Positions 251 through 37,080 of a stretch of DNA of 64,000 nucleotides are shown in pieces. The stretch covers positions 34,057 to 98,056 of IMG/VR virus record IMGVR_UViG_3300023184_000047. One strand, 5' to 3'. How positions within the stretch are numbered: position 1 is the stretch's first letter; every line of letters starts with the position of its first letter. Below the pieces are notes generated by a model that did no database searches, had not been told where the DNA came from, and was given only the letters and a program-made list of their open reading frames with translations. The DNA is from a virus. Taxonomy: Duplodnaviria > Heunggongvirae > Uroviricota > Caudoviricetes. The translations under genes were made by a program, and so were the position numbers.

Positions 251-1126
251 ATGATAACATATACATTATCTACCTTTAACACATTAAACTACTTAAAACT
301 TGCAATTCATTCAGCTAGAGAAAATGGTTATTATAAAGACGCTCCATTTATTATACATGCTGAAAATTGTACTGATGGTACTGATGAATGGTTAGAAGAA
401 AATAAAGAAAGATATAATTTAGAAGTCTATATTGAAAAAAATGAAACCCCTCGAGGAATAGGTGGAGGAATGAATTTTTGCGCTAGTAAAGTTAAAACCA
501 AATACATTGGGTTTCTATCCTCGGACTTTTATATGTCTCGAAATTGGGATAAAGAATTAGTAGAATTGTGTGAAAATAACCCTCAAGATAAACTATGGAC
601 CTTTTGTTATAGAGTAGAACCAGATATTTTTAATGATCCACATAGCAGACCCGGAGTTATTAAAGTATCAGAAGATACTTTTGGAGAATATTATCATAAC
701 TTTAAAGCTGATTTGTTTGAAGAATGGGCTGATGAATTTACCACATTAAATGATATCCAATACAATCTACCTCAGGGAGTAAGTGGTGTGATCAAAAAAG
801 AAGATTGGGACTATATAGGAGGTAATGATGATAGATTTGCTCCAATGTATTGGGAAGATGCTGATATATTTACTAGGATGTTAAATGAAGGTTTTAAATT
901 TATTACAACAAGTAAAACATTATTATATCATTTTGCCTCCAGAACTAGCAGATTCCCAGATGATAATTTAAAACAAAGACCAGCTCATTTAGCCGAGTAT
1001 GAGCAAAGAAGTTTACGTAGATTTATAGAAAAGTATGGGAAATTACCACAACATGGTCCTTTAGGAGAATATTATCCTATGCCTATTGTAGATGGTTCAC
1101 CAAATAGAATAAACCAAAATAACTAA
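251..1126 (+). CDS. putative glycosyltransferase (hypothetical)
   Basis: 291-aa ORF between fcl and gmd. Only weak GT-A-like N-terminal features; context-based call. Confidence 0.3.
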   Translation: MITYTLSTFNTLNYLKLAIHSARENGYYKDAPFIIHAENCTDGTDEWLEENKERYNLEVYIEKNETPRGIGGGMNFCASKVKTKYIGFLSSDFYMSRNWDKELVELCENNPQDKLWTFCYRVEPDIFNDPHSRPGVIKVSEDTFGEYYHNFKADLFEEWADEFTTLNDIQYNLPQGVSGVIKKEDWDYIGGNDDRFAPMYWEDADIFTRMLNEGFKFITTSKTLLYHFASRTSRFPDDNLKQRPAHLAEYEQRSLRRFIEKYGKLPQHGPLGEYYPMPIVDGSPNRINQNN

Positions 1127-1127
1127 T

Positions 1128-2096
1128 ATGAGTAAAACAGCATTAATAACCGGGATAAACGGAATGGATGGAAGTCACTTAGCAGATTTCCTATTAGAAA
1201 AAGGATATATTGTTTACGGTTTGGAGAGACGCAGCTCAGGTGAAACTAGAGCAAATATTCTTCACCTTCAAGATAGAATAAAATTCATCAAAGGAGACTT
1301 AACAGACCAAAATTCATTGCTTCGAGCTCTTAAAGAATCTCAGCCAGATGAAGTATATAACTTAGCTGCTCAATCCTTTGTAGGTGAAAGTTGGAATACA
1401 CCTGAACAAACTAGTGATGTAACAGGATTAGGAGTACTTAGGATGCTAGAAGCCATTCGTGAATACGGCTCAGATAAAATCAAATTTTATCAAGCATCAT
1501 CTTCAGAAATGTTTGGACGTATGGTTGAAAACCCAGCAAATGAAAACACCCCATTTTATCCTCGTTCACCTTATGGTGTTGCTAAATTATATGGACATTG
1601 GATAACCAAAAACTACAGAGAATCTTATAATATGTTTGCCTGCTCAGGTATATTATTTAACCATGAATCCGAAAGACGTGGTTTGGAATTTGTAACTAGA
1701 AAAATAACTAATGGTGTAGCTAAAATACATTTAGAATTAGCAGATCACATTTCATTAGGTAATTTAGATGCTCAACGTGACTGGGGATATGCTCCTGATT
1801 ATGTTGAAGCAATGTGGTTAATGTTACAGCAAGATACTCCTGATGACTATGTTATTGCTACTAATTGTACTTATTCTATTAAAGATTTCTTAGATGAAGC
1901 CTTTATAGCAATTGGGATTGCAGATTGGGAACCATATGTTAAAATAGATCCCAAATTTATCCGCCCAGCTGAAGTTGATATTCTTAGGGGAAATTGTACA
2001 AAAGCAGAACAAAATTTAAGATGGGCACCCAAAACTAGTTTTAAAGAAATGGTACACTTAATGGTACAAAATGATATAAAATTATTAAGTAAATGA
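1128..2096 (+). CDS. gmd: GDP-mannose 4,6-dehydratase
   Basis: N-terminus ALITGINGMDGSHLADFLLEKGYIVYGLERRSS matches the GMD Rossmann motif [25 protein letters not shown].RRSS. Short-chain dehydrogenase YxxxK present (YGVAKLYGHW). Length 322 aa. Confidence 0.85.
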   Translation: MSKTALITGINGMDGSHLADFLLEKGYIVYGLERRSSGETRANILHLQDRIKFIKGDLTDQNSLLRALKESQPDEVYNLAAQSFVGESWNTPEQTSDVTGLGVLRMLEAIREYGSDKIKFYQASSSEMFGRMVENPANENTPFYPRSPYGVAKLYGHWITKNYRESYNMFACSGILFNHESERRGLEFVTRKITNGVAKIHLELADHISLGNLDAQRDWGYAPDYVEAMWLMLQQDTPDDYVIATNCTYSIKDFLDEAFIAIGIADWEPYVKIDPKFIRPAEVDILRGNCTKAEQNLRWAPKTSFKEMVHLMVQNDIKLLSK

Positions 2097-3145
2097 TATC
2101 ACTAATAATACCTGTTACAACATCTAATTTAAACTATACAAATAATATAGTTCGTAATATTAGAGATTTATACCCTAATGAAGAAGAAGTTGAAATTATT
2201 CTAGAAACTAACGATAATGTCAGTTTGGGAATTAATTACAATAACGCTGTTGCTCGTGCTAAAGGTGAAAAAATAATATTATTACATAACGATATGGTTT
2301 TATCTAAAGGTTTTATAGAAACCATGGATAAACATATAAGTAAACGCACAATAACGACGTATACTCGCATAGAACCTCCCATTTACCCAGATATATATCC
2401 TGGTAAAGTTATTAAAGATTGTGGCTCGGACTTAGGTACATTTGATGAAAACCTATTTAATCAAATTCAATTAGAAGAAAGTTTAATCGATGGGGGTTCT
2501 CAATTATTCTTTGGATGTTATAAAGAAGATTATATTGGGATTGATGGGTATACATTTAAAAAATTTTGTGAAGATGATGATCTTCACTTAAGATATCAAC
2601 TAGCCGGATTCGAACATAAAGTAAGTTCAGCTTATGTTTATCATTTTGTAAGCAAAACATCACGTGTAGGAGACTATAATCATATAGAAAAAAATTCAAA
2701 TCGTGATTTTATTCGTAAATGGGGTTCAAGAAAACCATCTGTAAAATATAATATTGCTTATGTTGTTAAAAATTGTCAATTACCTGTTTTAGATACCTTT
2801 GAATTATTTTGTGATAGAATATATGTAAATGAACGATTATCTATTGGTAGATTGTGGGATTACGTTGAATTAGAACAGGAAAATACTTCATTTGATCTAT
2901 CAAAGAGAGTATATACTATAGAACATAATGATCCAATACTAGAAAACGATATTGTAGTTGAATTTGATTATCTAAAATTTTCTCCTGAAGCTTGGGAAAT
3001 ATTACAACAATTACCTAATATAATTAAAGAAAATGGTGAAGTAGGTACATTTGAGTTGGATATATTTACAATTACTATTAATTCACTGCCTGAATACCAA
3101 AACGATTTAATATTTATATCAAAACAACATAATGAAACCAGTTAG
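2093..3145 (+). CDS. family-2-like glycosyltransferase
   Basis: N-terminal IIPVTTSN...EIILETNDN...ILLHNDMVL pattern is typical of a GT-A fold. Start overlaps the gmd stop (ATGA). Ends with TAG. Confidence 0.45.
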   Translation: MISLIIPVTTSNLNYTNNIVRNIRDLYPNEEEVEIILETNDNVSLGINYNNAVARAKGEKIILLHNDMVLSKGFIETMDKHISKRTITTYTRIEPPIYPDIYPGKVIKDCGSDLGTFDENLFNQIQLEESLIDGGSQLFFGCYKEDYIGIDGYTFKKFCEDDDLHLRYQLAGFEHKVSSAYVYHFVSKTSRVGDYNHIEKNSNRDFIRKWGSRKPSVKYNIAYVVKNCQLPVLDTFELFCDRIYVNERLSIGRLWDYVELEQENTSFDLSKRVYTIEHNDPILENDIVVEFDYLKFSPEAWEILQQLPNIIKENGEVGTFELDIFTITINSLPEYQNDLIFISKQHNETS

Positions 3146-5757: not shown

Positions 5758-5999
5758 ATTAAATAGAACGGTAATTTAATTTTTCCATAATTTATATATA
5801 TTTATAGACATAAAATAATAAAATGCAAGCACTTCAAAACATACATCAACAACTGAGCATAGCGTCAAGAGCCATTAGTCAATGGTCGGATTCGTTATGT
5901 GGGGATGTCATTGTAGGCTTTACGTATAATAACGAACCGAAAACAACTAAAACCGGGATATGATATAATTAAATTATAACATATAAATTCTAATAAGAA

Positions 6000-6030
6000 C
6001 CCGGATCAAAAAAGATTCGGGTTTTTTTTT
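6000..6030 (+). terminator. rho-independent terminator
   Basis: cccggatc-aaaaaa-gattcggg hairpin (one G.U pair) followed by a T9 run. Confidence 0.6.
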
Positions 6031-6058
6031 AAAATAAATTTGGATACCGTAAAAAGGA

Positions 6059-6078
6059 TTCGTATATTTAAGTATAAT
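6059..6078 (+). promoter_or_regulatory. class-A conserved promoter-like motif TTCGTATATTTAAGTATAAT (drives the tRNA array)
   Basis: Same about 20-nt motif recurs at 8874, 12469, 14369, 14801, 17193, 18049, 21224, 23775, 25802 and 31012. Each sits about 15-30 nt upstream of a gene start and often just after a terminator. Confidence 0.5.
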
Positions 6079-6235
6079 AAAAAGGGGGAGTGGTAAATGG
6101 TAAAGCGCTCAAGGCATTGAGAGATGAGGTTCGAATCCTCCAAGTAGCAGGCATGTGAAAAAATATGGTATTATTGCAGGTTCGAATCCTGTCTGCCCCA
6201 CAACAAGAGTTCATTGACATATTGGATAAGATTAA

Positions 6236-6329
6236 GGAGGATTAAGCCGAAAGATTCTGGGTACCGGCAGCGCACTTGAAATGCGTCGATCATTAAAATG
6301 GTGTATGGGTTCGAATCCTATATCCTCCG
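6236..6329 (+). tRNA. tRNA-Ser(TGA), type II
   Basis: Acceptor ggaggat/atcctcc perfect. Anticodon stem gcgca/tgcgt with loop cTTGAaa. Long variable arm. T-arm atggg-TTCGAAT-cctat. Confidence 0.65.
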
Positions 6330-6335
6330 CAACAT

Positions 6336-6407
6336 TGGCTTATAGTGTAATGGTTAGCACAAAACACTTTGACTGTTTTAGTCTAGGTTCGAGTCCTAGT
6401 AAGCCAA
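6336..6407 (+). tRNA. tRNA-Gln(TTG)
   Basis: Acceptor tggctta/taagcca. D-stem gtgt/gcac. Anticodon stem aaaca/tgttt with loop cTTTGac. T-arm ctagg-TTCGAGT-cctag. Confidence 0.75.
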
Positions 6408-6416
6408 CTTTAATTT

Positions 6417-6490
6417 CTAGTAGCGAAGCCCGGTTTCATGCCTCACTTGGACTGAGGAGTACGTAGGTTCGAATCCTGCCTATTAGACCA
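6417..6490 (+). tRNA. tRNA-Pro(TGG), CCA encoded
   Basis: Anticodon stem cctca/tgagg with loop cTTGGac. T-arm gtagg-TTCGAAT-cctgc. Acceptor ctagtag/ctattag, then A and CCA. D-arm irregular. Confidence 0.5.
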
Positions 6491-6548
6491 CCACAAATAG
6501 AGCCGACGGCCGTGTAAAGGTGCCGCCTATCGTGAATTTCGGCAATAT

Positions 6549-6621
6549 TCCCTTGAAGCTCATGTGGACGGGCACTCCGCTTTTAACGGAGGGGTAGATG
6601 GTTCGAGGCCATCCGGGGGAA
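6549..6621 (+). tRNA. tRNA-Lys(TTT)
   Basis: Acceptor tcccttg/cggggga (two G.U). D-stem gctc/gggc. Anticodon stem ctccg/cggag with loop cTTTTaa. T-arm gatgg-TTCGAGG-ccatc. Confidence 0.7.
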
Positions 6622-6680
6622 CAAACACAGTTTACTTCGGCAACGTTCTGTATGGTGCACATAAAAATCGGAGCCGACCA

Positions 6681-6751
6681 GCCTCGATGGCGTAATGGAA
6701 GCGTATTTGTTTTACATGCAAATGGCAGTGGTTCGATTCCACTTCGAGGTA
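6681..6751 (+). tRNA. tRNA-Val(TAC)
   Basis: Acceptor gcctcga/tcgaggt. Anticodon stem tttgt/gcaaa with loop tTTACat. T-arm agtgg-TTCGATT-ccact. Confidence 0.7.
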
Positions 6752-6759
6752 CAAAAATT

Positions 6760-6840
6760 GGGTAGCAAAAGTCGTTCGGATACGGCAGCCAGACTGTAAA
6801 TTTGGTCCTCACGGGAGTGGTTCGAGTCCACTGCTGCCCA
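6760..6840 (+). tRNA. tRNA-Tyr(GTA), long variable arm
   Basis: Acceptor gggtagc/gctgccc. Anticodon stem ccaga/tttgg with loop cTGTAaa. Variable stem-loop tcc-tcacg-gga. T-arm agtgg-TTCGAGT-ccact. Confidence 0.6.
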
Positions 6841-6943
6841 CAAAGTGTTGACTTCAGGTTCCCAGTAGGGAAGTACACTTAAATAAAACAAGCACGGGGA
6901 AAGTGTCGACTTAAGAAACGGCAAGTACCAACGAAGGGAGTAC

Positions 6944-7016
6944 GGGTCTTTTGTATAGCTGGTGCGTACGCTAGTCTGAAGAACTAGAGGAGCAGGTTCG
7001 ATTCCTGTAGGACCCA
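6944..7016 (+). tRNA. tRNA-Phe(GAA)
   Basis: Acceptor gggtctt/aggaccc. Anticodon stem ctagt/actag with loop cTGAAga. T-arm gcagg-TTCGATT-cctgt. Confidence 0.75.
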
Positions 7017-7029
7017 CTGTATTAACCTT

Positions 7030-7101
7030 GGACTTGTAGCTCAGAGGAAGAGCGTTTGCCTGTTAAGCAAAGGGTCGGGATTTCGAAATTCCCCAAGTCC
7101 G
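7030..7101 (+). tRNA. tRNA-Asn(GTT)
   Basis: Acceptor ggacttg/caagtcc perfect. D-arm tagctcagaggaagagc. Anticodon loop cTGTTaa. Confidence 0.75.
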
Positions 7102-7110
7102 CAATAAATT

Positions 7111-7182
7111 GCTCCTATAGTAGAATGGTTAGCACACATCTCTGATAAGGATGAAATGGAGGTTCAATTCCTTCTAGGAGTA
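7111..7182 (+). tRNA. tRNA-Ile(GAT)
   Basis: Acceptor gctccta/taggagt. Anticodon stem catct/ggatg with loop cTGATaa. T-arm ggagg-TTCAATT-ccttc. Confidence 0.65.
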
Positions 7183-7240
7183 CAAAGTAGAATAAGCTAG
7201 TGTTGGGCCTACAGGAATGATATCTTCCACAACACTCTTT

Positions 7241-7327
7241 GGAGAATAGTCTAATATTGGTTCGTAGTGGCATCCTGCTAAGATGTTCCTGGTAAAACAG
7301 GTGAGAGTTCGATTCTCTTGTTCTCCG
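7241..7327 (+). tRNA. tRNA-Ser(GCT), type II
   Basis: Acceptor ggagaat/gttctcc. Anticodon stem gcatc/gatgt with loop cTGCTaa. Variable arm cctg-gtaaaa-cagg. T-arm gagag-TTCGATT-ctctt. Length 87 nt. Confidence 0.7.
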
Positions 7328-7463
7328 CAAAAAAACCTCCTCACCGTCCTCACAACGCATCTAAGGAATGCAGGAGATGAAAGTACGAACGGGGCACTAG
7401 TGGTAGGACACTTGATCAAAAAATCTATAGTACAACGATAGGGTAAGAGGTTCCCTATCAACT

Positions 7464-7532
7464 ACCGAGTGAGCTTGGGATCAAGGATGGCTCATATCCG
7501 CCCTTAGGTTGGTTCGAATCCAACACTCGGTA
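7464..7532 (+). tRNA. tRNA-Met(CAT) copy 1 (Met, fMet or Ile-lysidine type)
   Basis: Acceptor accgagt/actcggt perfect. Anticodon loop cTCATat. T-arm gttgg-TTCGAAT-ccaac. Compressed D-arm, 69 nt. Confidence 0.5.
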
Positions 7533-7603
7533 CAAAATTAGAAAATGAAGATTAAACCAAACTCATGCCGGATGAGCTTCTTATTGGTTGTCTAATTTTA
7601 CAT

Positions 7604-7677
7604 GGTGATTGTAGCTGAATTGGTAAAGCGTCTGATTGTGGTTCAGGAGATTGTGGGTTCGAGTCCCATCTTTCACA
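7604..7677 (+). tRNA. tRNA-His(GTG) with extra 5' G(-1)
   Basis: Anticodon stem tctga/tcagg with loop tTGTGgt. T-arm gtggg-TTCGAGT-cccat. A G precedes the acceptor, as in His tRNAs. Acceptor gtgattg/ctttcac has two T.T mismatches. Confidence 0.5.
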
Positions 7678-7684
7678 CAAACAC

Positions 7685-7763
7685 ATCCCTGTGGTGAAAT
7701 GGTAAACACGTTTGGTTTAAGCCCAAATGCCTAGGCTTGCTGGTTCGACTCCAGTCAGGGATA
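7685..7763 (+). tRNA. tRNA-Leu(TAA), type II
   Basis: Acceptor atccctg/cagggat perfect. Anticodon stem tttgg/ccaaa with loop tTTAAgc. Variable arm about 11 nt. T-arm gctgg-TTCGACT-ccagt. Confidence 0.7.
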
Positions 7764-7768
7764 CAATT

Positions 7769-7840
7769 GGTCTTATAGTTTAATTGGAAAAACTTATCGC
7801 TACGAACGATAGAACAAAGGTTCGATCCCTTTTAAGACCT
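7769..7840 (+). tRNA. tRNA-Arg(ACG)
   Basis: Acceptor ggtctta/taagacc perfect. D-stem gttt/aaac. Anticodon stem tatcg/cgata with loop cTACGaa. T-arm aaagg-TTCGATC-ccttt. Confidence 0.8.
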
Positions 7841-7845
7841 CAACT

Positions 7846-7917
7846 GCCCTATTAGTTAAACGGATATAACAAATCTCTTCTAAAGATTAATTCTAGGTTC
7901 GATTCCTGGATGGGGTA
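7846..7917 (+). tRNA. tRNA-Arg(TCT)
   Basis: Acceptor gccctat/atggggt. D-stem gtta/taac. Anticodon stem aatct/agatt with loop cTTCTaa. T-arm ctagg-TTCGATT-cctgg. Confidence 0.75.
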
Positions 7918-8015
7918 CAAAAAAATCGTATACCAAAGTTTCCCGTTTAGGATGCAGCTTTAGAGTATTAAGGTGAATAGGCCATTCACAGTAGGTTTAG
8001 CGATATCCTGCAAAT

Positions 8016-8086
8016 GCGTCAGTGGTGCAATGGTAGCATACCGGTCTCCAAAACCGACGATGAGGGTTCGACTCCCTCCTGGCGTG
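8016..8086 (+). tRNA. tRNA-Trp(CCA)
   Basis: Acceptor gcgtcag/ctggcgt. D-stem gtgc/gcat. Anticodon loop cTCCAaa. T-arm gaggg-TTCGACT-ccctc. Confidence 0.65.
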
Positions 8087-8338
8087 CTAAATTATTAATT
8101 ATGAAAAAGAAATTCGATATGCATTAAGTTTATTAACTTAAAATGCATAAAAATGAGAATCAAAAACTATACCAACAAAGAGTATAAGTTAGAAAAAAGA
8201 AAAGAGTATTCAGAATGGGATACCTGGTTTGAAGACTATTGGAGTAAAAAATCCAATATATGGGCCTTCAAGTATAGAGAATACCGTACCTGGAAGTACA
8301 ACAGAAAAACACAATACAAACCTTTAAAATAAGTTATC

Positions 8339-8845
8339 ATGAGTAAGTACCAAAAAACACTGGTAATCGATTCAAGCTTTATGGCAAGAAGCATTATCTC
8401 TACCGAAAGAGCTTTCGTGATTTCGTATAAGGGCAATGCAGAAATAATAGCTGAACACCCAGAAACATTTGGATTAGTAAATCCTAATCTAGAAATTTTT
8501 AAACCTTCAATCATTAGGGTTTACAAATACGTAAAACAAAACATTCAAAAAGTTCCTCTAACAAGAGAAAATGTTTATCGAAGAGATAATTACGAATGTG
8601 TTTATTGTGGATCAAGCCACTTGAAGTCACTAACACTTGATCATGTCATTCCACAATCAAAAGGTGGACAAAATGCTTGGGATAATTTAGTAACAGCATG
8701 TAGAAGATGTAATCATGAAAAAGCAGATTTAACTCTTGAGGAATATGGTAAAGAAATAGTAGAACCAAAAAGACCTCACTATTTTATGCTTATGAAGCAG
8801 TTAACACACATTCCAGTAGAATGGGAAAAGTTTTTACTTTTTTAG
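8339..8845 (+). CDS. HNH homing endonuclease inserted in the tRNA array
   Basis: CVYCGSSHLKSLTLDHVIPQSKGGQNAWDNLVTACRRCNHEK is the canonical HNH/ββα-Me motif with a Cys4 zinc site. A 59-aa ORF sits just upstream (8152..8331). Confidence 0.8.
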   Translation: MSKYQKTLVIDSSFMARSIISTERAFVISYKGNAEIIAEHPETFGLVNPNLEIFKPSIIRVYKYVKQNIQKVPLTRENVYRRDNYECVYCGSSHLKSLTLDHVIPQSKGGQNAWDNLVTACRRCNHEKADLTLEEYGKEIVEPKRPHYFMLMKQLTHIPVEWEKFLLF

Positions 8846-8873
8846 TAAAAAAGTTTGGATATTAAAAAATAAG

Positions 8874-8893
8874 TTCGTATATTTAAGTATAAT
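8874..8893 (+). promoter_or_regulatory. class-A promoter-like motif (second tRNA sub-cluster)
   Basis: aagTTCGTATATTTAAGTATAATtaaag. Confidence 0.45.
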
Positions 8894-9062
8894 TAAAGAG
8901 ATACAAAAATCGGAATTGACCGAGGCATGTGATTAACAGTATTGTACTGACTCGCTTAAGCCCTAAGAGCACTTTAATTTTAAATATAAATCATCTACTA
9001 CATAACACGGCGCCAAATTAATTGTGACATGTACTGTCTGGAAGGTCAGGCTAGGTGAATAG

Positions 9063-9132
9063 GGGCAGGATGGTTATGGAGACCGGCGGGATTGCAAACT
9101 CCGCAGAGTAAGTTCGATTCTTACCTTGCCCT
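9063..9132 (+). tRNA. tRNA-Cys(GCA)-like
   Basis: Acceptor gggcagg/cttgccc. T-arm gtaag-TTCGATT-cttac perfect. Anticodon loop tTGCAaa on a 4-bp stem. D-arm weak. Confidence 0.45.
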
Positions 9133-9227
9133 CTTTTAAGGTTCGACCCTCTACCAAATGTGTTACACCCACAGATGGATACCGAGAGGGAGCTACCGAC
9201 TGATAAGTGACCGCACATGCGGTAAAT

Positions 9228-9340
9228 GGCAAGGTGGCGGAATGGTAAACGCACTGAATAGTTAAACAGAGTGGATAAGTCGCATTATAGTTGAAATACA
9301 CATAAGACCCACGTGCAGGTTCAATTCCTGTCCTTGGCCA
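9228..9340 (+). pseudogene. aberrant 113-nt tRNA-like gene (tRNA with about 40-nt insertion, or pseudo-tRNA)
   Basis: Clean 5' half ggcaagg-tg-gcgg-aatggtaaa-cgc. T-arm gcagg-TTCAATT-cctgt. Acceptor partner ccttggc (6 of 7 paired). No canonical 5-7-5 anticodon arm in the 62 nt between them. Confidence 0.3.
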
Positions 9341-9352
9341 CAAAAATAAATT

Positions 9353-9426
9353 GCTCCGGTGCTGGAACTGGTATACAGGGCGGTCTTAGAAACCGTTTAT
9401 TGAGGGTTCGAATCCCTCCTGGAGTA
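9353..9426 (+). tRNA. tRNA-Leu(TAG) with short variable arm (atypical for Leu)
   Basis: Acceptor gctccgg/ctggagt. Anticodon stem gcggt/accgt with loop cTTAGaa. Variable region only 5 nt. T-arm gaggg-TTCGAAT-ccctc. Confidence 0.55.
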
Positions 9427-9431
9427 CAAAA

Positions 9432-9498
9432 TTACAGTTAGCTTATAGTAAAGCAGCAGGGGCTAACCTGCAGAACGGATACGAAAACCGGCTGTAAT
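9432..9498 (+). tRNA. tRNA-like with CUA (amber-reading) anticodon and degenerate T-arm; possible suppressor or pseudo-tRNA
   Basis: Acceptor ttacagt/gctgtaa (6 bp plus one G.U). D-stem gctt/aagc perfect. Anticodon stem gcagg/cctgc perfect with loop ggCTAac. T-region cgg-atacgaaaa-ccg is non-canonical. Length 67 nt. Confidence 0.35.
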
Positions 9499-9503
9499 TA
9501 AAT

Positions 9504-9576
9504 GCTTCCTTAGCTCAATTGGCAGAGCACTTGTTTTGTAAACAAGAGGTTATCGGATCGTGGCCGGTAGGAAGCT
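9504..9576 (+). tRNA. tRNA-Thr(TGT) with non-canonical T-loop
   Basis: Acceptor gcttcct/aggaagc perfect. D-stem gctc/gagc perfect. Anticodon stem cttgt/acaag perfect with loop tTTGTaa. T-arm atcgg-ATCGTGG-ccggt lacks TTC. Confidence 0.65.
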
Positions 9577-9627
9577 CAAATGGTCTGAGGGAGTCCTTTA
9601 AGGAATAAATAGCCTGTCCCTCTCTAT

Positions 9628-9701
9628 GCAATTATAGTGTTCAACGGCTAGCACGTGGGCCTTCCAAGTCTGAAGTTTCGGTTCGAATCCGAATAATTGC
9701 T
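9628..9701 (+). tRNA. tRNA-Gly(TCC)
   Basis: Acceptor gcaatta/taattgc perfect. D-stem gtgt/gcac. Anticodon loop cTTCCaa (stem with three G.U). T-arm ttcgg-TTCGAAT-ccgaa perfect. Confidence 0.7.
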
Positions 9702-9752
9702 CAAGGGTGTGTGGGAACCCAAGAATATGTGATGAACATATACCCACAATCT

Positions 9753-9824
9753 GCTGCGTTAGTGAAGGGGTTAACACGTATCACTTTCTATGATAAGGCA
9801 CGGGTTCGAATCCCGTACGCAGTA
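9753..9824 (+). tRNA. tRNA-Glu(TTC)
   Basis: Acceptor gctgcgt/acgcagt. Anticodon stem tatca/tgata with loop cTTTCta. T-arm acggg-TTCGAAT-cccgt. Confidence 0.75.
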
Positions 9825-9830
9825 CAATAA

Positions 9831-9902
9831 GGGGCTATAGTGAAATTGGCATCACGATAGATTTGCATTCTGTTATTCCGGGTTCGAATCCCGGTAGCTC
9901 CA
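9831..9902 (+). tRNA. tRNA-Ala(TGC)
   Basis: Acceptor ggggcta/tagctcc (G3.U70 present). D-stem gtga/tcac. Anticodon loop tTTGCat. T-arm ccggg-TTCGAAT-cccgg. Confidence 0.75.
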
Positions 9903-10010
9903 CAAAATTAGGAAGTAAAGACTGAGCAGGACACCGTAAAATGATTCGCAACATTAGAGCTGTTTCTTTTTTTAATATGTGAAAGCGAGATATTAAAACC
10001 TAATTTTTTT

Positions 10011-10082
10011 GGTCTATTCGTTCAACGGCTAGGATACTACCCTGTCACGGTAGGGATGAGAGTTCGATTCTCTCATAGACCG
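10011..10082 (+). tRNA. tRNA-Asp(GTC)
   Basis: Acceptor ggtctat/atagacc perfect. Anticodon stem ctacc/ggtag with loop cTGTCac. T-arm gagag-TTCGATT-ctctc. Confidence 0.75.
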
Positions 10083-10091
10083 CTAATAAAT

Positions 10092-10164
10092 TGCGTTAAA
10101 GTGTAAAGGTTGCATCCTGGTCTCATAAGCCAGGGGGGTGGTTCGAGTCCACGTTACGCTACCA
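10092..10164 (+). tRNA. tRNA-Met(CAT) copy 2, CCA encoded, unpaired 1:72
   Basis: Anticodon stem ctggt/gccag with loop cTCATaa. T-arm ggtgg-TTCGAGT-ccacg. 3' end ...ttacgct-A-CCA. Position 1 (T) does not pair with position 72 (T). Confidence 0.5.
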
Positions 10165-10236
10165 GGCCTTGTAGCTCAAAGGAGGAGCAGTTCGCTCATA
10201 ACGAAAAGGTTGGGATATCATAATTCCCCAAGGCCA
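10165..10236 (+). tRNA. tRNA-Met/Ile(CAT) copy 3 with non-canonical T-loop
   Basis: Acceptor ggccttg/caaggcc perfect. D-stem gctc/gagc. Anticodon loop cTCATaa. T-region ggga-TATCATAAT-tccc lacks TTC. Directly abuts the previous tRNA. Confidence 0.55.
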
Positions 10237-10300
10237 CTAAATTTTATCCATTATGAGGTCAATTCCTTCGTCTCCAATGTAGGTTAGCTATTGCTAACTT

Positions 10301-10534
10301 ATGACTCAGAAATTGAGAATTTGGAGAGTAGTCCCTACCAGTAAGACTGGTGTTCAGGCTCCCACGTTTTTTGTTGAAACAACAGAGAATGGTAGAGAAG
10401 AAGCAGTAGCATCTGCAAACCGCCAAGCAAGACAAAGGTCAGGTTTGGGTAAGTTTAACAATTGGAATTTCGAATTAACCAAAATGAATGTCCGAGTTGA
10501 CAGACATGGAAAGTATATTCGTCATCACCAATAA
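10301..10534 (+). CDS. hypothetical small basic protein
   Basis: 77-aa ORF after the tRNA array. A hairpin (gttagc-tatt-gctaac) sits just before the ATG. Confidence 0.3.
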   Translation: MTQKLRIWRVVPTSKTGVQAPTFFVETTENGREEAVASANRQARQRSGLGKFNNWNFELTKMNVRVDRHGKYIRHHQ

Positions 10535-12897: not shown

Positions 12898-13548
12898 ATG
12901 AAACTAGTATTAGAAAAAGGACAGCAATTGTTCTTTACATCAGACACACATTACTCACACTCAAACATTTGTAGTGCTACTACAAACTGGTCAGTGAATG
13001 ATGGATATGCTCGTAAGTTTGATTCATTGGAAGATATGAACAACACTCTAGTGAATAACATTAACAACGTGGTTGGTGAAGATGATATCTTAATTCACTT
13101 AGGTGACTGGTCATTTGGAGGATTTGATAAGATTGAAGAATTTAGAAGTCAAATCAACTGTAAAAACATTCACTTAGTACTTGGAAACCACGATCATCAT
13201 ATTGAAAGAAACAAGGAAGATGTTCAAAAACTATTCTCCTCAGTACAACAATACTTGAGATTAGAAGTAAGAAGACCAATCAATAAAGCAACAACTGAGA
13301 AGTTTATTTTCGTGTGTATGCACTATCCAATTGCTTCTCATCACGATATGAATCAAGGTGTAATTCACTTGCATGGTCACGTTCATTTACCGTATCATCT
13401 ACGATTGGCAGAGGGTAAAGCAATGGATGTTGGAGTAGATGGAAATGAATTGGAGCCAATTTCAATGGACCAGGTATTAGGTATTATGGAAATGCAACCA
13501 ATTAAAAAATTAACCTTACCAAAGGACCACCATGAGCGTAGAATATAA
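12898..13548 (+). CDS. calcineurin-like metallophosphoesterase (candidate RNA-end healing phosphatase)
   Basis: Ordered motifs SDTHYSH, LGDWSFGG, LGNHDHH, MHYP and HGHVH match the DxH...GDxxD...GNH[DE]...H...GH signature. Confidence 0.7.
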   Translation: MKLVLEKGQQLFFTSDTHYSHSNICSATTNWSVNDGYARKFDSLEDMNNTLVNNINNVVGEDDILIHLGDWSFGGFDKIEEFRSQINCKNIHLVLGNHDHHIERNKEDVQKLFSSVQQYLRLEVRRPINKATTEKFIFVCMHYPIASHHDMNQGVIHLHGHVHLPYHLRLAEGKAMDVGVDGNELEPISMDQVLGIMEMQPIKKLTLPKDHHERRI

Positions 13549-16021: not shown

Positions 16022-17155
16022 ATGGAAAATAATAATAGTGTTTGCTTTATAGCAAAAATCAACGAAGTAAGAGCAATCGAAGGTGCTGATAACATCGAAC
16101 AAGCAGTTATCGGAGGATGGAATACGATTGTAAAAAAAGGAACACATCAAGCCGGACAACTAGTAATAGTTGCAACTACTGATGCAGTTATCCCTTTAGA
16201 ACTTTCTGACAAGTTCGGTGTAACCTCTTACCTAAGAAAAGGACAAAGAGTTAGAACAGTAAAACTAAGAGGAGTTTATTCTGAATGCTTAGTAATACCA
16301 ATTACTCCAGGACATGAGATTAACTACTCAGAGGGTCAAGACATGATGGGAAAACTTGGTATCGTAAAATACGAACCACCAGTTAAACAAATTCAACTTG
16401 CTTCAGGTAGAAAGATTAAATGGAGAGACAATCAAAACTTCCATATCTATTACAAATTCCCAAACCTTAAAAACGTTGATGGAATGTTTACAGAACAAGA
16501 TACAGTTCAAATCACTAGAAAGATTCACGGAACAAATGCAAGATATGGTATTGTAAAGAAAGGACAATTAACATTCTGGGATAAAGTAAAAAAATTCTTT
16601 AGAATTGCTGATGCTTGGATTGATTATGAATACATTTATGGATCTCATAACTGTGAAAAAGGAAGTGACTCTCAAGGATTTTATTCAACTGATGTTTGGA
16701 GAACAACTGAAGAAAAGTATGGTATCAAACAAAGGCTTTGGAATTATGTGAAACATATGCAAACTCCTGAAACAATCGGAGAAGGAATAATTCTTTACGG
16801 AGAAATTTACGGAGCTGGTATTCAAAAGAACTATGAATATGGTTTAGAAGATATTAAGTTTACAGGATTCGATTTAAAAATAAATGGAGAGTACGTATCT
16901 ACACGTAGAGCAGAGTTCTTAATAGAGGCTGAATGTGAATTAGGACTCCCTCACGTAGAAGTTCTTTACGAAGGACTATGGAATCAAGAAGTTCAAGATA
17001 GCTTTGTATTCAAAAACTTCATTGAAGGAACAAAAGTACCACATGAAGGAATTGTAATCAAACACATCTCAGGTGAAAGAAAGAAAGTAGCAAAGGTAAT
17101 CAATCCAGACTATTTAATCTACGGAGAGAAGAATGATGTAGGAGATTCACATTAA
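16022..17155 (+). CDS. ATP-dependent RNA ligase (Rnl2/DraRnl-like nucleotidyltransferase with N-terminal extension)
   Basis: Motif I KIHGTN (same hexapeptide as the T4 Rnl2 active-site lysine motif). Motif III ILYGEIYG. Motif IV EGIVIK. Motif V KKVAK. About 160-aa N-terminal domain precedes motif I, as in DraRnl-type ligases. Confidence 0.7.
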   Translation: MENNNSVCFIAKINEVRAIEGADNIEQAVIGGWNTIVKKGTHQAGQLVIVATTDAVIPLELSDKFGVTSYLRKGQRVRTVKLRGVYSECLVIPITPGHEINYSEGQDMMGKLGIVKYEPPVKQIQLASGRKIKWRDNQNFHIYYKFPNLKNVDGMFTEQDTVQITRKIHGTNARYGIVKKGQLTFWDKVKKFFRIADAWIDYEYIYGSHNCEKGSDSQGFYSTDVWRTTEEKYGIKQRLWNYVKHMQTPETIGEGIILYGEIYGAGIQKNYEYGLEDIKFTGFDLKINGEYVSTRRAEFLIEAECELGLPHVEVLYEGLWNQEVQDSFVFKNFIEGTKVPHEGIVIKHISGERKKVAKVINPDYLIYGEKNDVGDSH

Positions 17156-23809: not shown

Positions 23810-24526
23810 ATGAGACAATTCAAACTAATAAAAGAATACCCAGCATCTCCTAAATTAGGATTTATAGTACTTGAAAGACACTGTGGGATGTATCATAATA
23901 TAGAGACAGGAAATATGTATGGTTCTCAAATGATTGAAAGTCATCCTGAATACTGGGAAGAAGTAGTTGAGAAGGATTATGAAATCCTAATATCAAGAGT
24001 AGTACCACAAGAAATACTTTCAGTAAAACGTCTCTCAGATGGAGAAGTATTTACAGTAGGTGATGAATTCAAAGCTACTATCGGAAGTAGAGATGTTATT
24101 AGAACTATTCAGAGAATAAAAGTTGAAGGAGATATAATAACTATTCATCACGAAAATGGAGATCTTTCTAATCAAAAACACTTTGGTATTTTTCATACTA
24201 TTAAGAAAGTAAAACAACCAATCTTTCTAACACACGATGGAAAGAATATTTATGAAGGAGATAAAGTATGGTACGTAAATAAAGAGAATTTTTACTACGA
24301 TTATATCTTACCATCCTACGATTATATCTTACCATCCCCAGGAATTAAATTCTGTTCTGATATAAATGCATATTTTCTAACAAGAGAAGATGCAGAAGAT
24401 TATATTAAAAGAAACAGACCACGACTGTCAATTGAAGACTGTTTTAAAATTCTTCAAAATCAGTTTCTATATTCAGTAGGGTTTGAAGAATCAATTGAAG
24501 AATATATAAGAAAAAATAATAAATGA
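23810..24526 (+). CDS. hypothetical protein containing a 7-aa tandem duplication
   Basis: A 21-nt unit is directly duplicated at about 24296..24337, giving YDYILPS-YDYILPS. Preceded by the class-A motif at 23775. Confidence 0.4.
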   Translation: MRQFKLIKEYPASPKLGFIVLERHCGMYHNIETGNMYGSQMIESHPEYWEEVVEKDYEILISRVVPQEILSVKRLSDGEVFTVGDEFKATIGSRDVIRTIQRIKVEGDIITIHHENGDLSNQKHFGIFHTIKKVKQPIFLTHDGKNIYEGDKVWYVNKENFYYDYILPSYDYILPSPGIKFCSDINAYFLTREDAEDYIKRNRPRLSIEDCFKILQNQFLYSVGFEESIEEYIRKNNK

Positions 24527-25230
24527 AAACAAGAATAACAGTAATCTCAGATACACATACAAAACATGGATTGATTCCCCTTACAGATTTACCTGGAGGG
24601 GATTTACTAATCCATGCCGGAGACATAATGAATTCAGGATATAATAAAAATGATATCTTAGACTTCTGTACTTGGTTTCATTCACTTGAGCAATATGATA
24701 AAAAAATATTCATAGCAGGTAATCATGATCGTATGTTTGAGAATCATCCTGAAGGAGTAGAGGAGCTATTAAATATATACTTGGATATTGACTATCTTCA
24801 AGATGAAGCATATGATTTATATGACATGGATACTGATGCAAGTACAAAGATTTATGGTTCACCTTGGCAACCGGAATTCTATTCTTGGGCATTCAATCTT
24901 CCTAAAAATGGAATTGAGTTAGCTGCAAAGTGGGAAGCAATTCCTGACAACACAGACATTCTTATTACTCATGGTCCTGCATTTGGTACTTTGGATACAG
25001 TAGCAGGTCGTCCTTGGGATAATTTAGGATGTGAGTTACTAGCACAAAGAATTGAAGTTATTAAACCAAAAATTCATGTATGTGGTCATATCCATAGTGG
25101 TAGAGGCTATGTGTTTAAAAATGGTACACATTTCTTTAATGCAGCAGTATTGGATGAGCAGTACGAGTACACTCAAAAGCCAATGACCTTTGATTGGGAT
25201 AAAGAAAAAAATACAATTGAGTTTATCTAA
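24523..25230 (+). CDS. calcineurin-like metallophosphoesterase (second copy)
   Basis: ISDTHTKHG, IHAGDIMNSG, IAGNHD, ITHGP and CGHIH motifs. Confidence 0.65.
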   Translation: MKTRITVISDTHTKHGLIPLTDLPGGDLLIHAGDIMNSGYNKNDILDFCTWFHSLEQYDKKIFIAGNHDRMFENHPEGVEELLNIYLDIDYLQDEAYDLYDMDTDASTKIYGSPWQPEFYSWAFNLPKNGIELAAKWEAIPDNTDILITHGPAFGTLDTVAGRPWDNLGCELLAQRIEVIKPKIHVCGHIHSGRGYVFKNGTHFFNAAVLDEQYEYTQKPMTFDWDKEKNTIEFI

Positions 25231-28395: not shown

Positions 28396-28465
28396 AGCCA
28401 ATTGGTGTACTGGCGTACGCACCCGATCGTAAGGGCAAGGGTTGGTTCGATTCCAACATTGGCTT
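28396..28465 (+). tRNA. orphan tRNA-like gene with irregular anticodon arm
   Basis: Acceptor agccaat/attggct perfect. D-stem gtgt/acgc. T-arm gttgg-TTCGATT-ccaac perfect. Anticodon region ccc-gatcgtaa-ggg gives a 3-bp stem with an 8-nt loop; identity unclear (CGT or TCG). Confidence 0.4.
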
Positions 28466-36051: not shown

Positions 36052-36294
36052 ATGAATACTCAGACAAATAAACGGGCGATAGAAACAATAGGGTATAAGG
36101 GTAAGACATATGAAATAGATGTTCCGATGAGAGACCTATGTGAAGCACCACACCAAGACAATAAATGGCAACGTGAGCAAATAGAATTCGCTATACAACA
36201 ACAGGACTGGAATACGGTGAATAATAGAATAATAAACGGATTGAGGTTTATGTGGATGTGGGAGTTAGATGAGAATGGGAATAGAATAGAATAG
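36052..36294 (+). CDS. hypothetical protein
   Basis: ORF. Confidence 0.4.
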   Translation: MNTQTNKRAIETIGYKGKTYEIDVPMRDLCEAPHQDNKWQREQIEFAIQQQDWNTVNNRIINGLRFMWMWELDENGNRIE

Positions 36295-37080
36295 GGTTTT
36301 TTTGTAAGCAACCAACATTATTAAATGTTTTTTTGTTTAACGCATTGTTTTTTTTTGTTGCACAACACCATGTATAATTGGAGTTCATTGAAATTATCGC
36401 GTATTTTTGCGCAATAAACGCGGTTTTTTTTGTTGCTCAAGCAAAGTAGTAACGGTTGTAGAACAAGACGCAAGTATATTAAACGGTATGTGTAGTATTG
36501 TTTTTTTTGTAGCAAATACGCTATAGTATGTGACATGATGTGAGGTAATGGGTATTGTCGTTTGTTGTGTAGGGGAAAAGATCCGCCCCGCCCCGTCCCG
36601 TCTCCTTGAAAACCTAAACGTATATACAACAAAACATAACGTTACGATAGAGCTTCTCGATGGTTGGTATGCGTTTTTGTTATGATTTGACTCCTTTCAC
36701 CCGCGGAAGTCTTGTTTTTGTTGCGTTTCGATAGAGCTTCTCGATGGTTATTGATTTTTTCGATAGAGAAATTTGGTTACTGCAACTTTTTTTTGTACAT
36801 TATAAAAACTTAAAAAATATTTTATGCCTATTATCGTACTGTTTCCCGTTTATGGATTGCTTTTTGGAATACATTATGTCTCACCCGACATAGATGAAAA
36901 TTTTGATGTTGACGACGACGTCCATATGCTTCAAGTCGCACTGGGGTTTTTTGGTTTATCCATTATGTGGTAATTGTTTTTTTTGTTCATAACTTTTTTT
37001 GTTAAAAATTTGGTTACGTTATTTTTGTGTCGTAATTTTATAGCAGAGTTAAAAAATAATTAATTAACATTAAATTTAAA
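36295..37080. promoter_or_regulatory. about 0.8-kb repeat-rich non-coding region (candidate replication origin or regulatory hub)
   Basis: At least 12 copies of G/C-TTTTTTT(T)GT-NNC. Direct repeats of TTCGATAGAGCTTCTCGATGGTT at 36636 and 36727, with a partial third at 36758. GC box CCGCCCCGCCCCGTCCCGTCTCC at about 36583. Only a 49-aa ORF (36824..36973). Ends with a class-B motif. Confidence 0.4.

Follow-up and report, generated by a model that had tools for sequence, protein, structure and literature searches.

Why should a phage carry its own transfer RNA (tRNA) genes for all 20 amino acids, with a nuclease gene set among them? This question is raised by a tRNA gene array on the + strand (positions 6237 to 10236) of a 64,000-nucleotide (nt) stretch of viral DNA that spans positions 34,057 to 98,056 of IMG/VR record IMGVR_UViG_3300023184_000047. 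The whole stretch is referred to here as the window, and coordinates are those of the window unless another sequence is named. The array bears on whether phage tRNAs serve codon matching or insurance against tRNA-targeting defenses, and its HNH nuclease gene bears on whether array-resident nucleases are selfish or useful. We consider it likely that the locus is an accessory translation module, i.e., a minimal, nonredundant decoder with a conditional benefit, together with a resident HNH nuclease acting on tRNA-gene DNA.

Results

tRNA gene content of the array

ARAGORN predicted 22 + strand tRNA genes from 6249 to 10083, and the Rfam tRNA model (RF00005) matched 22 intervals of the array region at its gathering score. 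An interval was counted as a tRNA gene if it scored at least 29 bits against RF00005 or if ARAGORN called it with a 3-nt anticodon that could be assigned within a 7-nt loop; by this definition, the array holds 24 canonical genes. Three intervals were detected by Rfam without an ARAGORN call (10092–10161 [CAT], 10165–10236 [CAT], and the 112-nt interval 9228–9339), tRNA-Lys was detected in a permissive Rfam run (40.1 bits), and the class II genes tRNA-Tyr and tRNA-Ser(GCU) were called by ARAGORN alone. All 20 amino acids are covered; Ser, Leu, and Arg have two genes apiece, three genes are CAT, and 23 distinct anticodons are present.

An earlier reading of this DNA (referred to here as the original prediction) had listed 27 tRNA genes with the same strand, amino acid coverage, duplicated Ser, Leu, and Arg genes, and three CAT genes, and ARAGORN and Rfam reproduced this content. 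Most of the listed intervals scored above the covariance-model threshold (22 Rfam intervals at gathering score, plus tRNA-Lys); only tRNA-Tyr and tRNA-Ser(GCU) among the canonical genes depend on ARAGORN. The count of 27 can also be reproduced, as 24 canonical genes plus a degenerate gene (9228–9339), a tRNA(CAU) (7463–7533), and a cloverleaf (9428–9503), but two or three of the 27 are not ordinary tRNAs.

All canonical genes except the last two were called by ARAGORN; Rfam scores follow the coordinates. Upstream of the nuclease gene, the array encodes tRNA-Ser(UGA) (6237–6329; class II; 30.7 bits), tRNA-Gln(UUG) (6336–6408; 68.7 bits), tRNA-Pro(UGG) (6414–6490; 33.8 bits), tRNA-Lys(UUU) (6549–6622; 40.1 bits), tRNA-Val(UAC) (6681–6752; 62.4 bits), tRNA-Tyr(GUA) (6760–6841; class II; conserved in 18 loci), tRNA-Phe(GAA) (6944–7017; 56.9 bits), tRNA-Asn(GUU) (7030–7102; 60.6 bits), tRNA-Ile(GAU) (7111–7183; 58.7 bits), tRNA-Ser(GCU) (7241–7328; class II), tRNA-His(GUG) (7605–7678; 62.4 bits), tRNA-Leu(UAA) (7685–7764; 57.5 bits), tRNA-Arg(ACG) (7769–7841; 62.5 bits), tRNA-Arg(UCU) (7846–7918; 59.1 bits), and tRNA-Trp(CCA) (8016–8087; 61.4 bits). 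Downstream of it are tRNA-Cys(GCA) (9063–9133; 33.6 bits), tRNA-Leu(UAG) (9353–9427; 57.3 bits), tRNA-Thr(UGU) (9504–9577; 57.2 bits), tRNA-Gly(UCC) (9628–9702; 48.7 bits), tRNA-Glu(UUC) (9753–9825; 64.3 bits), tRNA-Ala(UGC) (9831–9903; 63.5 bits), and tRNA-Asp(GUC) (10011–10083; 56.4 bits). The ends of tRNA-Ser(UGA), placed by ARAGORN at 6249–6330, were set by acceptor pairing (GGAGGAT/ATCCTCC) and Rfam.

Two CAT genes close the array. The first (10092–10164, including an encoded CCA; 31.6 bits, with an alignment) is initiator-like: its U1·U72 mismatch is invariant among 14 variants, and its anticodon stem covaries. A 1:72 mismatch is a hallmark of bacterial initiator tRNAs. The second (10165–10236; 46.1 bits), whose acceptor stem is regular and whose T loop is unusual, is a paralog of the array tRNA-Asn and appears to be an elongator Met or Ile2 tRNA.

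The locus in related phages

The window has a G+C content of 30%, with every gene on a single strand, and its proteins include a baseplate wedge protein, a thymidylate synthase, and an RNA ligase. Nine window proteins are colinear with those of Flavobacterium phage vB_FspM_immuto (MW353175; here, immuto), at 42 to 87% identity; the phage is an uncultivated T4-like myovirus, and these proteins relate it to immuto, which has four tRNAs at this locus. IMG/VR was searched with the HNH protein and with p303, a 303-amino-acid (aa) protein encoded downstream of the array, yielding approximately 120 related contigs (labeled L001 and so forth where they must be told apart). A tblastn search of cultured phages with p303 gave no match, the kinship with immuto having come from other proteins.

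Gene order is kept across dozens of the IMG/VR contigs, and the window version is among the fullest. The order in relatives is Ser, Gln, Pro, Lys, Val, Tyr, Phe, Asn, Ile, Ser, tRNA(CAU), His, and Leu, followed by Arg, Arg, (Trp), a small open reading frame (ORF), HNH, Cys, Leu, Thr, Gly, Glu, Ala, Asp, Met, and Met; after the last Met come a 77-aa ORF and p303. The tRNA genes are 90 to 99% identical between backbones whose proteins share 60 to 90% identity. Single tRNAs are absent in many relatives, and entire arrays are deleted in several: where both flanking genes are present, the interval (0.6 to 8.2 kb) holds 0, 0, 1, 1, 2, 11, or 17 to 25 tRNAs. The clade thus constitutes a natural deletion series, since dozens of contigs share the backbone with 0 to 25 tRNAs, and immuto is a cultured entry point to it.

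HNH nuclease within the array

As the original prediction had proposed, the gene at 8339–8845 (+ strand) encodes an HNH nuclease; the protein has 168 aa, with its catalytic core at residues 83 to 137. The ORF matches the Pfam families HNH_5 (6.7e-16; 58.4 bits, cutoff 27.5), HNH (6.3e-15; 55.5 bits, cutoff 21.4), and HNH_4, as well as PHROG phrog_16726. It has the signature of the HNH superfamily (PF01844/PF14279; CxxC...DH...N...CxxC-N in a beta-beta-alpha-metal core), and C87, C90, D101, H102, N116, C121, C124, and N125 are invariant in 46 homologs and 27 loci. Among solved structures, the HNH domains of IscB and Cas9 are the nearest to it. The N-terminal 80 residues are without a domain assignment, and an AlphaFold2 model (46 close homologs) was poor (mean predicted local distance difference test score, 57.5; <50 for residues 24 to 72).

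The position of the gene is fixed: it occupies one slot, behind tRNA-Arg(UCU) or tRNA-Trp, in 40 of 41 related contexts. Among 43 distinct contexts examined, Arg(UCU) was the closest tRNA on the upstream side in 25 and Trp in 15, and Cys was the closest on the downstream side in 31. The median ratio of nonsynonymous to synonymous substitution rates (dN/dS) was 0.11, versus 0.18 for p303, and no disrupted copies were seen. The gene is kept in L003, where 2 tRNAs are left, and in L039, which has lost the Lys-to-Trp block; it is absent only together with most of the array (L004 to L007, L012, L025, and L035) or from the distant arrays of L054 and L055. The gene thus behaves like a long-term resident and does not show the sporadic occurrence expected of a recent homing invader.

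Its alleles have nevertheless moved between backbones. The HNH protein is 100% identical between L001 and L034, whose p303 proteins are 70% identical; the corresponding values are 93% and 62% for L021 and L044, and the reverse (80% and 95%) holds for L042 and L044. Between L001 and L034, a patch with 97.2% nucleotide identity (L001 positions 7479–8045) covers the HNH ORF (7494–7997), with flanks of 71 to 76%, and further high-identity patches occur in the same comparison. Horizontal transfer or gene conversion of the HNH gene is thus indicated both by the patch and by the discordant HNH and p303 identities, and the patch itself is a gene-conversion footprint centered on the gene, which fits homing-type conversion. 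The label "homing" in the original prediction is therefore supported in part: the allele transfer speaks for it, whereas the fixed slot, the intact copies everywhere, and the purifying selection are those of a long-term resident.

The association with tRNA genes extends beyond this clade. In an unrelated phage lineage, 40 of 41 loci have a homolog with 40 to 46% identity next to a tRNA array of divergent orientation; homologs also lie between two tRNA-Leu genes in Myxococcus phage Mx1 and <2 kb from tRNAs in Synechococcus phage S-CRM01.

A domesticated nuclease that is no longer mobile is the first alternative to be weighed. Such an enzyme would serve the phage by recombining the array or amplifying segments of it, by degrading host DNA, or in some other DNA transaction, and the allele exchanges would reflect ordinary phage mosaicism. 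The fixed site, the intact copies everywhere, and the dN/dS of 0.11 speak for it, as do the retention of the gene in L003 after the loss of all but 2 tRNAs, the other high-identity patches between L001 and L034, and the precedent of SegB as an adaptive array-resident nuclease (PMC13096335). However, the 97% patch matches the ORF boundaries, HNH and backbone identities disagree repeatedly and by wide margins, and HNH-less arrays that could be targets exist in distant relatives (L054 and L055). We regard a purely domesticated enzyme as rather unlikely and continue with the preferred reading of a resident nuclease that acts on tRNA-gene DNA.

Two further features lie between tRNA-Trp and the HNH gene, both on the + strand. 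A 59-aa ORF rich in Lys, Trp, and Tyr (8153–8332) stands directly upstream of the gene; its homologs (45 to 95% identity) adjoin the HNH gene in every relative carrying them, and it had no match in Pfam. This ORF is preceded by a conserved spacer with a hairpin (8088–8152; ≥80% covered in 24 loci at 91% identity; hairpin z score, −2.75).

Decoding capacity and codon usage

Codon usage was calculated from 76 ORFs (16,140 codons; G+C content at third codon positions [GC3], 0.19), and decoding was assumed to follow Watson-Crick pairing, standard wobble, and four-way reading by U34. Under these rules, the 23 anticodons read 59 of the 61 sense codons, leaving AUA (492 codons, 3%) and CGG (6 codons) unread; 10 of the 21 top codons are read by Watson-Crick pairing. 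The set comprises one U34 tRNA per four-codon box, one G34 or U34 tRNA per two-codon box, and ACG for CGN. With 59 of 61 codons read by 23 anticodons, it therefore amounts to one tRNA per codon box and is nonredundant except for the three CAU species, which are probably an initiator, an elongator Met tRNA, and an AUA reader. Because AUA is common in the phage genes, one CAU tRNA is expected to be a lysidine-modified Ile2, with which AUA would be read too. The array is complete for amino acids and nearly complete for codons.

Relatives with 0, 1, or 2 tRNAs in the interval have a flanking protein that is 77 to 88% identical, and their G+C content and GC3 are the same. Across the relatives, the tRNA number was unrelated to the G+C content of the downstream 8 kb (0.30 to 0.33) or to the GC3 of p303 (0.21 to 0.29; Spearman coefficients, 0.22 and −0.17, not significant). 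Since relatives with the same G+C content and GC3 carry 0 to 2 tRNAs, the array is accessory and its presence does not follow from phage codon usage alone; the same codon usage with and without the array argues against an obligate codon need and for a conditional benefit. The original prediction had explained the set by a strong codon-usage mismatch with the host, which finds no support in relatives of equal base composition that hold 0 to 2 tRNAs in the same interval, or by depletion of host tRNAs, which is plausible.

Codon compensation deserves separate consideration as the classical explanation of phage tRNAs (PMC10264068), according to which they top up isoacceptors that are scarce in the host for AT-rich phage codons. 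The GC3 of 0.19 fits this view, as do the U34 and G34 anticodons, which suit the preferred A- or U-ending codons, and the Watson-Crick reading of 10 of the 21 top codons. Against these stand the composition of the set, which is complete and nonredundant rather than codon enriched and includes tRNAs for rare codons, and the 0 to 2 tRNAs in the same interval of relatives with equal G+C content and GC3. Moreover, immuto, the closest relative in culture, infects Flavobacterium and carries just 4 tRNAs at the locus; the genus Flavobacterium is AT-rich too. We consider codon compensation an unlikely main reason for the array and retain conditional benefit as the preferred one.

That the array is a selfish or decaying tRNA island hitchhiking with the nuclease, eroding and of little benefit, is highly improbable: the missing single tRNAs, the deleted arrays, and the degenerate tRNA-like genes at 6084–6201 and 9228–9339 would agree with it, but the tRNA genes are more similar than the backbones, their order is conserved, their stems carry compensatory changes, and exactly one tRNA per codon box is unexpected from random accretion.

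A noncanonical tRNA(CAU)

The third CAU species (7463–7533, + strand) was called by ARAGORN only in mitochondrial mode, as Met(cat). The slot between Element D (see below) and tRNA-His is filled by 25 distinct variants, and their alignment (A7) was 94.4% paired, with compensatory changes at 16 of 25 pairs and 0 of 500 shuffles as good. The acceptor stem has 8 bp (97.5% paired), followed by a connector of 0 or 1 nt, a 4-bp D stem with a D loop of 3 to 5 nt, and an 8-bp anticodon stem with compensatory changes at all eight pairs and an invariant loop, CUCAUA(A/U). The variable region has 2 nt, and the 5-bp T stem is 100% paired, with compensatory changes at 4 of its 5 pairs; one variant subgroup is without the TψC sequence.

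This architecture fits neither of the two classes against which it was compared. A canonical 7/5 cloverleaf (7-bp acceptor stem, 2-nt connector, 5-bp anticodon stem, and variable region of 4 to 5 nt or long) did not fit 7463–7533. The best Rfam match was tRNA-Sec (RF01852; 26.4 bits, gathering score 47), to which the window copy aligns best because of its long acceptor stem; the features of tRNA-Sec (UCA anticodon, long variable arm, and 6-bp D stem) were not found, the element having CAU, 2 nt, and 4 bp instead. No RF00005 match was reported for 7463–7533 at E ≤10, in a search that suppressed lower-scoring overlapping matches of the same clan. From the covariation, 7463–7533 is a real but noncanonical tRNA.

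Known noncanonical tRNA architectures include tRNA-Sec, tRNA-Pyl, and mitochondrial tRNA-Ser(UCN) (PMC7609411). Bacterial tRNA-Sec has the same 8-bp acceptor and 5-bp T stems as 7463–7533, whose connector of 0 to 1 nt, very small D loop, extended anticodon stem, and short variable region are reminiscent of tRNA-Pyl and mitochondrial tRNA-Ser(UCN) (PMC7609411). Compared with tRNA-Sec and tRNA-Pyl, the anticodon is CAU instead of UCA or CUA, the anticodon stem has 8 bp instead of 6 bp, and the long variable arm is missing; the allo-tRNAs, with 8/4 or 9/3 branches and long variable arms, also differ from it (PMC5389517). The combination of this architecture with a CAU anticodon was not found in reviews of noncanonical tRNAs covered by a limited literature search.

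Structured RNAs between the tRNA genes

Most spacers of the array were without a detectable homolog in relatives, but four, designated Elements A to D and all on the + strand, are conserved like the tRNAs. Element D (7329–7462; alignment A3, 21 variants) forms the 5′ leader of the tRNA(CAU) at 7463–7533 and lies directly 5′ of this noncanonical tRNA in every case. Of its five helices, one closes the structure over a long range and one is crossing (pseudoknotted); 99.1% of the alignment cells are paired, with 7 compensatory pairs (0 of 500 shuffles; slid controls, 27 to 51%). A hepatitis delta virus-like ribozyme was rejected for Element D, as its strand order, compared by eye, mismatches that topology.

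Element A (9428–9503) is a cloverleaf represented by 30 distinct variants (alignment A1, 26 variants). RNAalifold predicted an 8-bp outer stem, a 4-bp arm, an arm that is variable in sequence and length (5 to 9 bp), and a 3-bp arm. Of the cells, 96.5% are paired, and 9 of 20 pairs are compensatory (0 of 500 shuffles; slid partners, 23 to 48%). The spacing is tRNA-like (2 nt, 4-bp arm, 1 nt, 5-bp arm, and 4 nt; fold z score, −4.34), and the covariance model of the element weakly matches true tRNA-Asn and tRNA-Thr. Given the hypervariability of its "anticodon" arm, the element is not a tRNA; we read it as a tRNA-derived cloverleaf that has lost its anticodon and T-loop consensus but remains under selection for shape. 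The window has a single copy, and the element is confined to this clade; a pattern scan of IMG/VR gave mostly chance matches, with 12 of 100 loci confirmed by the covariance model.

Element B (9134–9227; alignment A2, 19 variants) is 99.7% paired, with 5 compensatory pairs (0 of 500 shuffles). It has 88.5% DNA identity to the immuto stretch that precedes tRNA-Ser, which is annotated as the end of a 51-aa coding sequence, immuto26A_33 (immuto positions 5914–6069). A protein-coding Element B is unlikely, since the ORF start is missing in the window and in most relatives and the substitutions are RNA-compensatory and amino acid changing. This pattern suggests that the 3′ half of immuto26A_33 is an RNA element and not coding. 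Element C (9703–9752) is a hairpin with an internal loop found in 29 loci at 91% identity; with 2 compensatory pairs among 7 variants, its support is the weakest of the four.

A cmscan search of 5800–10500 against Rfam 15 (E ≤10) gave no credible match for Elements A to D. Three chance-level overlaps below the gathering scores were YrlA on Element A (9395–9457; 19.1 bits versus 69; E, 1.9), SpF41 on Element C (9623–9734; 21.7 bits versus 52; E, 5), and, on the strand opposite Element D, Plastid-psbl-rps4 (7278–7327; 17.7 bits versus 68; E, 4.8). Elements A and D had no blastn match in 50,697 cultured phage records. We propose, tentatively and with less than even confidence, that the array holds a new architectural class of tRNA(CAU) plus at least three new structured RNA families (the cloverleaf A, the pseudoknotted leader D of about 120 nt, and the 94-nt element B), all functional parts of the module. 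In this class, the D stem would stack directly on the anticodon stem, and arm lengths like those of tRNA-Sec would be combined with a Met/Ile2 anticodon loop. If so, the tRNA(CAU) might be a dedicated initiator or an AUA reader that bypasses host factors, and the elements might be processing scaffolds or decoys for tRNA-binding host defenses.

Transcription signals and leader

The original prediction had placed a terminator and a promoter before the array (about 6000–6078), and the terminator and a promoter motif were borne out. A 13-bp hairpin with a U run (5995–6035, + strand) forms a strong intrinsic terminator of the upstream gene; the hairpin proper (5995–6026) has a free energy of −17.3 kcal/mol and a z score of −5.04, with 0 of 200 shuffles as good, and was revealed by folding, having escaped a consensus terminator scanner. 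It is followed on the same strand by a promoter motif (6039–6078) composed of TTTG, 17 nt, and TCGTATATTTAAGTATAAT, with the exact motif at 6060. The second promoter claimed after the HNH gene corresponds to another exact copy at 8875 with TTTG at the same distance (8854–8893, + strand). This 19-nt motif occurs 11 times in the window, always on the + strand and between 6 and 31 kb, with 0.14 copies expected. The arrangement of TTTG and TCGTATATTTAAGTATAAT is one that we take to fit the Bacteroidota −33/−7 promoter type, and we infer that the copies act as promoters. No terminator was found between tRNA-Trp and the HNH gene, and the gene is therefore probably cotranscribed with the upstream tRNAs.

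Between the first promoter motif and tRNA-Ser(UGA) lie two leader segments, both on the + strand. The first (6084–6201) is tRNA-like: it carries two T-arm motifs, and its two ends form an acceptor-type stem. It scored 26.7 bits against the Rfam tRNA model, short of the gathering score, and has homologs in 5 loci at 73 to 80% identity; it is probably a disrupted tRNA. The second is a conserved motif, CATTGACATATTGGATAAG (6202–6236), ≥80% covered in 44 loci at a median identity of 93.8%. In many contigs of relatives, the leader motif CATTGA(C/A)ATATTGGATAA stands between the promoter and the transcription unit's first tRNA, also where the promoter lies between Cys and Leu(UAG).

Degenerate genes, trailers, and neighboring genes

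The interval 9228–9339 (+ strand; 31.4 bits, without an ARAGORN call) is a degenerate class II tRNA-like gene. The acceptor, D, and T arms are well formed, whereas the "anticodon" loop measures 10 nt and the variable region 40 nt, and an anticodon cannot be assigned. The fold is no better than that of shuffled sequences, 1 homolog was found among approximately 160 related loci, and the 5′ end is homologous to the tRNA-Ser(UGA) of immuto, which follows the same upstream element (Element B). It is probably a pseudo-tRNA.

With lowered thresholds, ARAGORN also called a tRNA-Leu(cag) at 6111–6201, a tRNA-Tyr(ata) at 9261–9339, a minus-strand Arg(tcg), and an "intron-containing" Gln, all of which we rejected as forced-cloverleaf artifacts; the Leu(cag) calls in L001 and L032 concern an element other than window positions 6111–6201. 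Suppressor-tRNA readings were rejected for the CUA in the loop of Element A, given its hypervariable arm, and for the UUAA in 9228–9339, given its 10-nt loop. The genetic code of the window is standard (stop codons: TAA, 58; TAG, 10; TGA, 8).

In 18 or 19 of the 26 tRNA or tRNA-like genes within 6237–10237, the discriminator is followed by C-A-A(A), not CCA, and CCA is encoded only in 10092–10161. The conserved CAA(A) trailer may be a processing signal. An orphan tRNA-like gene with the same CAA trailer (28396–28465, + strand; 30.2 bits with the region scanned alone), also reported by ARAGORN, lies 18 kb from the array; its acceptor, D, and T arms are good, and its 3-bp anticodon stem and 8-nt loop do not allow an anticodon to be assigned.

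Several relatives differ from the window in tRNA content. An additional tRNA occupies the slot between tRNA-Val and tRNA-Tyr, empty in the window, in L019, L021, L029, L031, and L048, and its ARAGORN anticodon varies by contig (Pro[tgg], Pro[cgg], Phe[aaa], Ser[tga], or Ile[tat]). Three contigs of 208 to 435 kb (L040, L056, and L059) encode a p303 homolog (63 to 64% identity) with tRNAs on both sides (26 to 34 within 21 kb) and no HNH homolog; because this homolog sits among tRNAs, the module is present in much larger genomes or bins. The more distant relatives L050, L058, L060, and L062 have ARAGORN "Stop(tta)" tRNAs with an ochre-suppressor anticodon, and an uncalled tRNA-like sequence in L116 (10204–10282) has a 7-nt loop, AUUCAAA, that would give the anticodon UCA. 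Stop-codon suppression may occur in parts of the phage group, with the window excepted.

Downstream of the array are an RNA ligase gene (16022–17155; Pfam RNA_ligase and PHA02142 OB-fold; phrog_968) and two genes for calcineurin-like metallophosphoesterases (12898–13548 and 24523–25230), 3 to 15 kb away. Taken together, their products might act as a set for RNA end healing and sealing (tRNA repair). Upstream (251–3145) are two family 2 glycosyltransferase-like ORFs and a GDP-mannose 4,6-dehydratase, which relate to sugar-nucleotide metabolism. The segment 36000–42000 has a G+C content of 0.35 to 0.36, versus about 0.30 elsewhere; 36294–37085 and 40788–41419 are without + strand ORFs of ≥50 aa, and the segment had no Rfam match at gathering score. 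A 160-aa ORF (41597–42079, + strand) with a T5orf172/MUG113 domain, related to GIY-YIG, is a second nuclease-like and possibly mobile gene.

Discussion

Proposed mechanism and its significance

The gene content, conservation, and covariation that we observed would be accounted for as follows. The promoter copies at 6039–6078 and 8854–8893 would drive polycistronic transcripts, which host RNase P and 3′ end-processing enzymes would cut into the 24 canonical tRNAs, the tRNA(CAU), and several stable non-tRNA RNAs. In vivo, the set would let the phage translate its AT-rich genes largely independently of the host tRNA pool. The likeliest benefit would be conditional, i.e., insurance against host tRNA loss (through tRNA-cleaving defenses or shutoff) or against unsuitable host pools. 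A model in which phage tRNAs take the place of host tRNAs cut by defense nucleases (PMC10264068, PMC13096335) would fit the completeness of the set and the nearby RNA ligase and metallophosphoesterases. The free-standing HNH nuclease, resident at one array site throughout the clade, would most likely act on DNA at or near tRNA genes of coinfecting relatives; this action would promote gene conversion or recombination and thereby keep and spread the HNH gene and neighboring tRNAs, as SegB does in T4 and T6.

Several points weigh against this reading. The scores of Pro, Cys, the first Met, and Ser (33.8, 33.6, 31.6, and 30.7 bits) lie near the Rfam threshold. The reader of AUA is assumed, with its lysidine modification being predicted, and four-way reading by U34 depends on the modification state. 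The fixed position of the HNH gene, without decayed copies, is unlike the classical gain, decay, and loss of a homing gene. Finally, homologs of the nuclease in PA5oct and Gordonia phage Forza (31 to 35% identity) are located away from tRNAs, so that the link with tRNA arrays, found in Mx1, S-CRM01, and the second lineage, is recurrent and not universal.

What distinguishes the locus is the one-per-box design, the series of 0 to 25 tRNAs, the fixed site and allele transfer of the HNH gene, and the undescribed RNAs in the array. The noncanonical tRNA(CAU) and the covariation-backed spacer RNAs are concrete new candidates for RNA biology, and a tRNA with tRNA-Sec-like dimensions and a CAU anticodon would be of interest for translation initiation, AUA decoding, and orthogonal tRNA design.

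Comparison with known systems

A tRNA array with an embedded nuclease gene is a known kind of phage module, with T4 SegB and the tRNA region of T5 as precedents. Like the array described here, the T4/T6 cluster has a nuclease gene among the clustered tRNAs of a T4-like myovirus; SegB is inherited with neighboring tRNAs, and in both systems the tRNA content at the locus differs between related phages. Small stable non-tRNA RNAs are likewise present in both, and those of the T4 cluster are the species 1 and 2 RNAs. The two differ in that SegB is a GIY-YIG enzyme and the window nuclease an HNH enzyme, and in that T4 has 8 tRNAs versus 25 here. SegB is absent from the close relatives T2L, RB1, and RB3, whereas almost all full arrays of the clade carry the window-type HNH gene. 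No GIY-YIG domain was found in the window nuclease, with only HNH families matching in Pfam and PHROGs; because its catalytic domain is HNH, it falls outside the SegB family, and the likeness is one of position. In the T4 tRNA cluster, SegB homes and recognizes the TψC motif (PMC2330249); amplification of tRNA-Tyr by SegB counters Septu, and linkage of SegB to tRNAs is widespread (PMC13096335).

The likeness to T5, drawn by description, consists of a large tRNA set for most amino acids with HNH-family ORFs inside it. In T5, about two dozen tRNAs are interspersed with HNH-type endonuclease genes. The differences are that T5 has several endonuclease genes and the window array has one at a fixed site and that the host phylum and the promoters differ. 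The T5 tRNAs are reported, in work cited by another study (PMC13096335), to counter tRNA-targeting defenses. An anti-defense model in which phage tRNAs replace cleaved host tRNAs has been reviewed alongside codon compensation (PMC10264068), and the two explanations are under debate for tRNA-rich large phages.

The structured noncoding RNAs GOLLD and ROOL occur in or beside phage tRNA arrays (PMC12286853), like Elements A to D, and are longer (500 to 800 nt versus 50 to 134 nt). Arrays of 20 to 30 tRNAs are found in other tRNA-rich lytic myoviruses, as here, and Shigella phage Sf14 has 26 tRNAs for 19 amino acids (PMC12482277). Unlike other tRNA-rich large phages, however, the array described here has strictly one tRNA per codon box for all 20 amino acids, and its order is kept across an uncultivated clade whose close relatives have lost the array.

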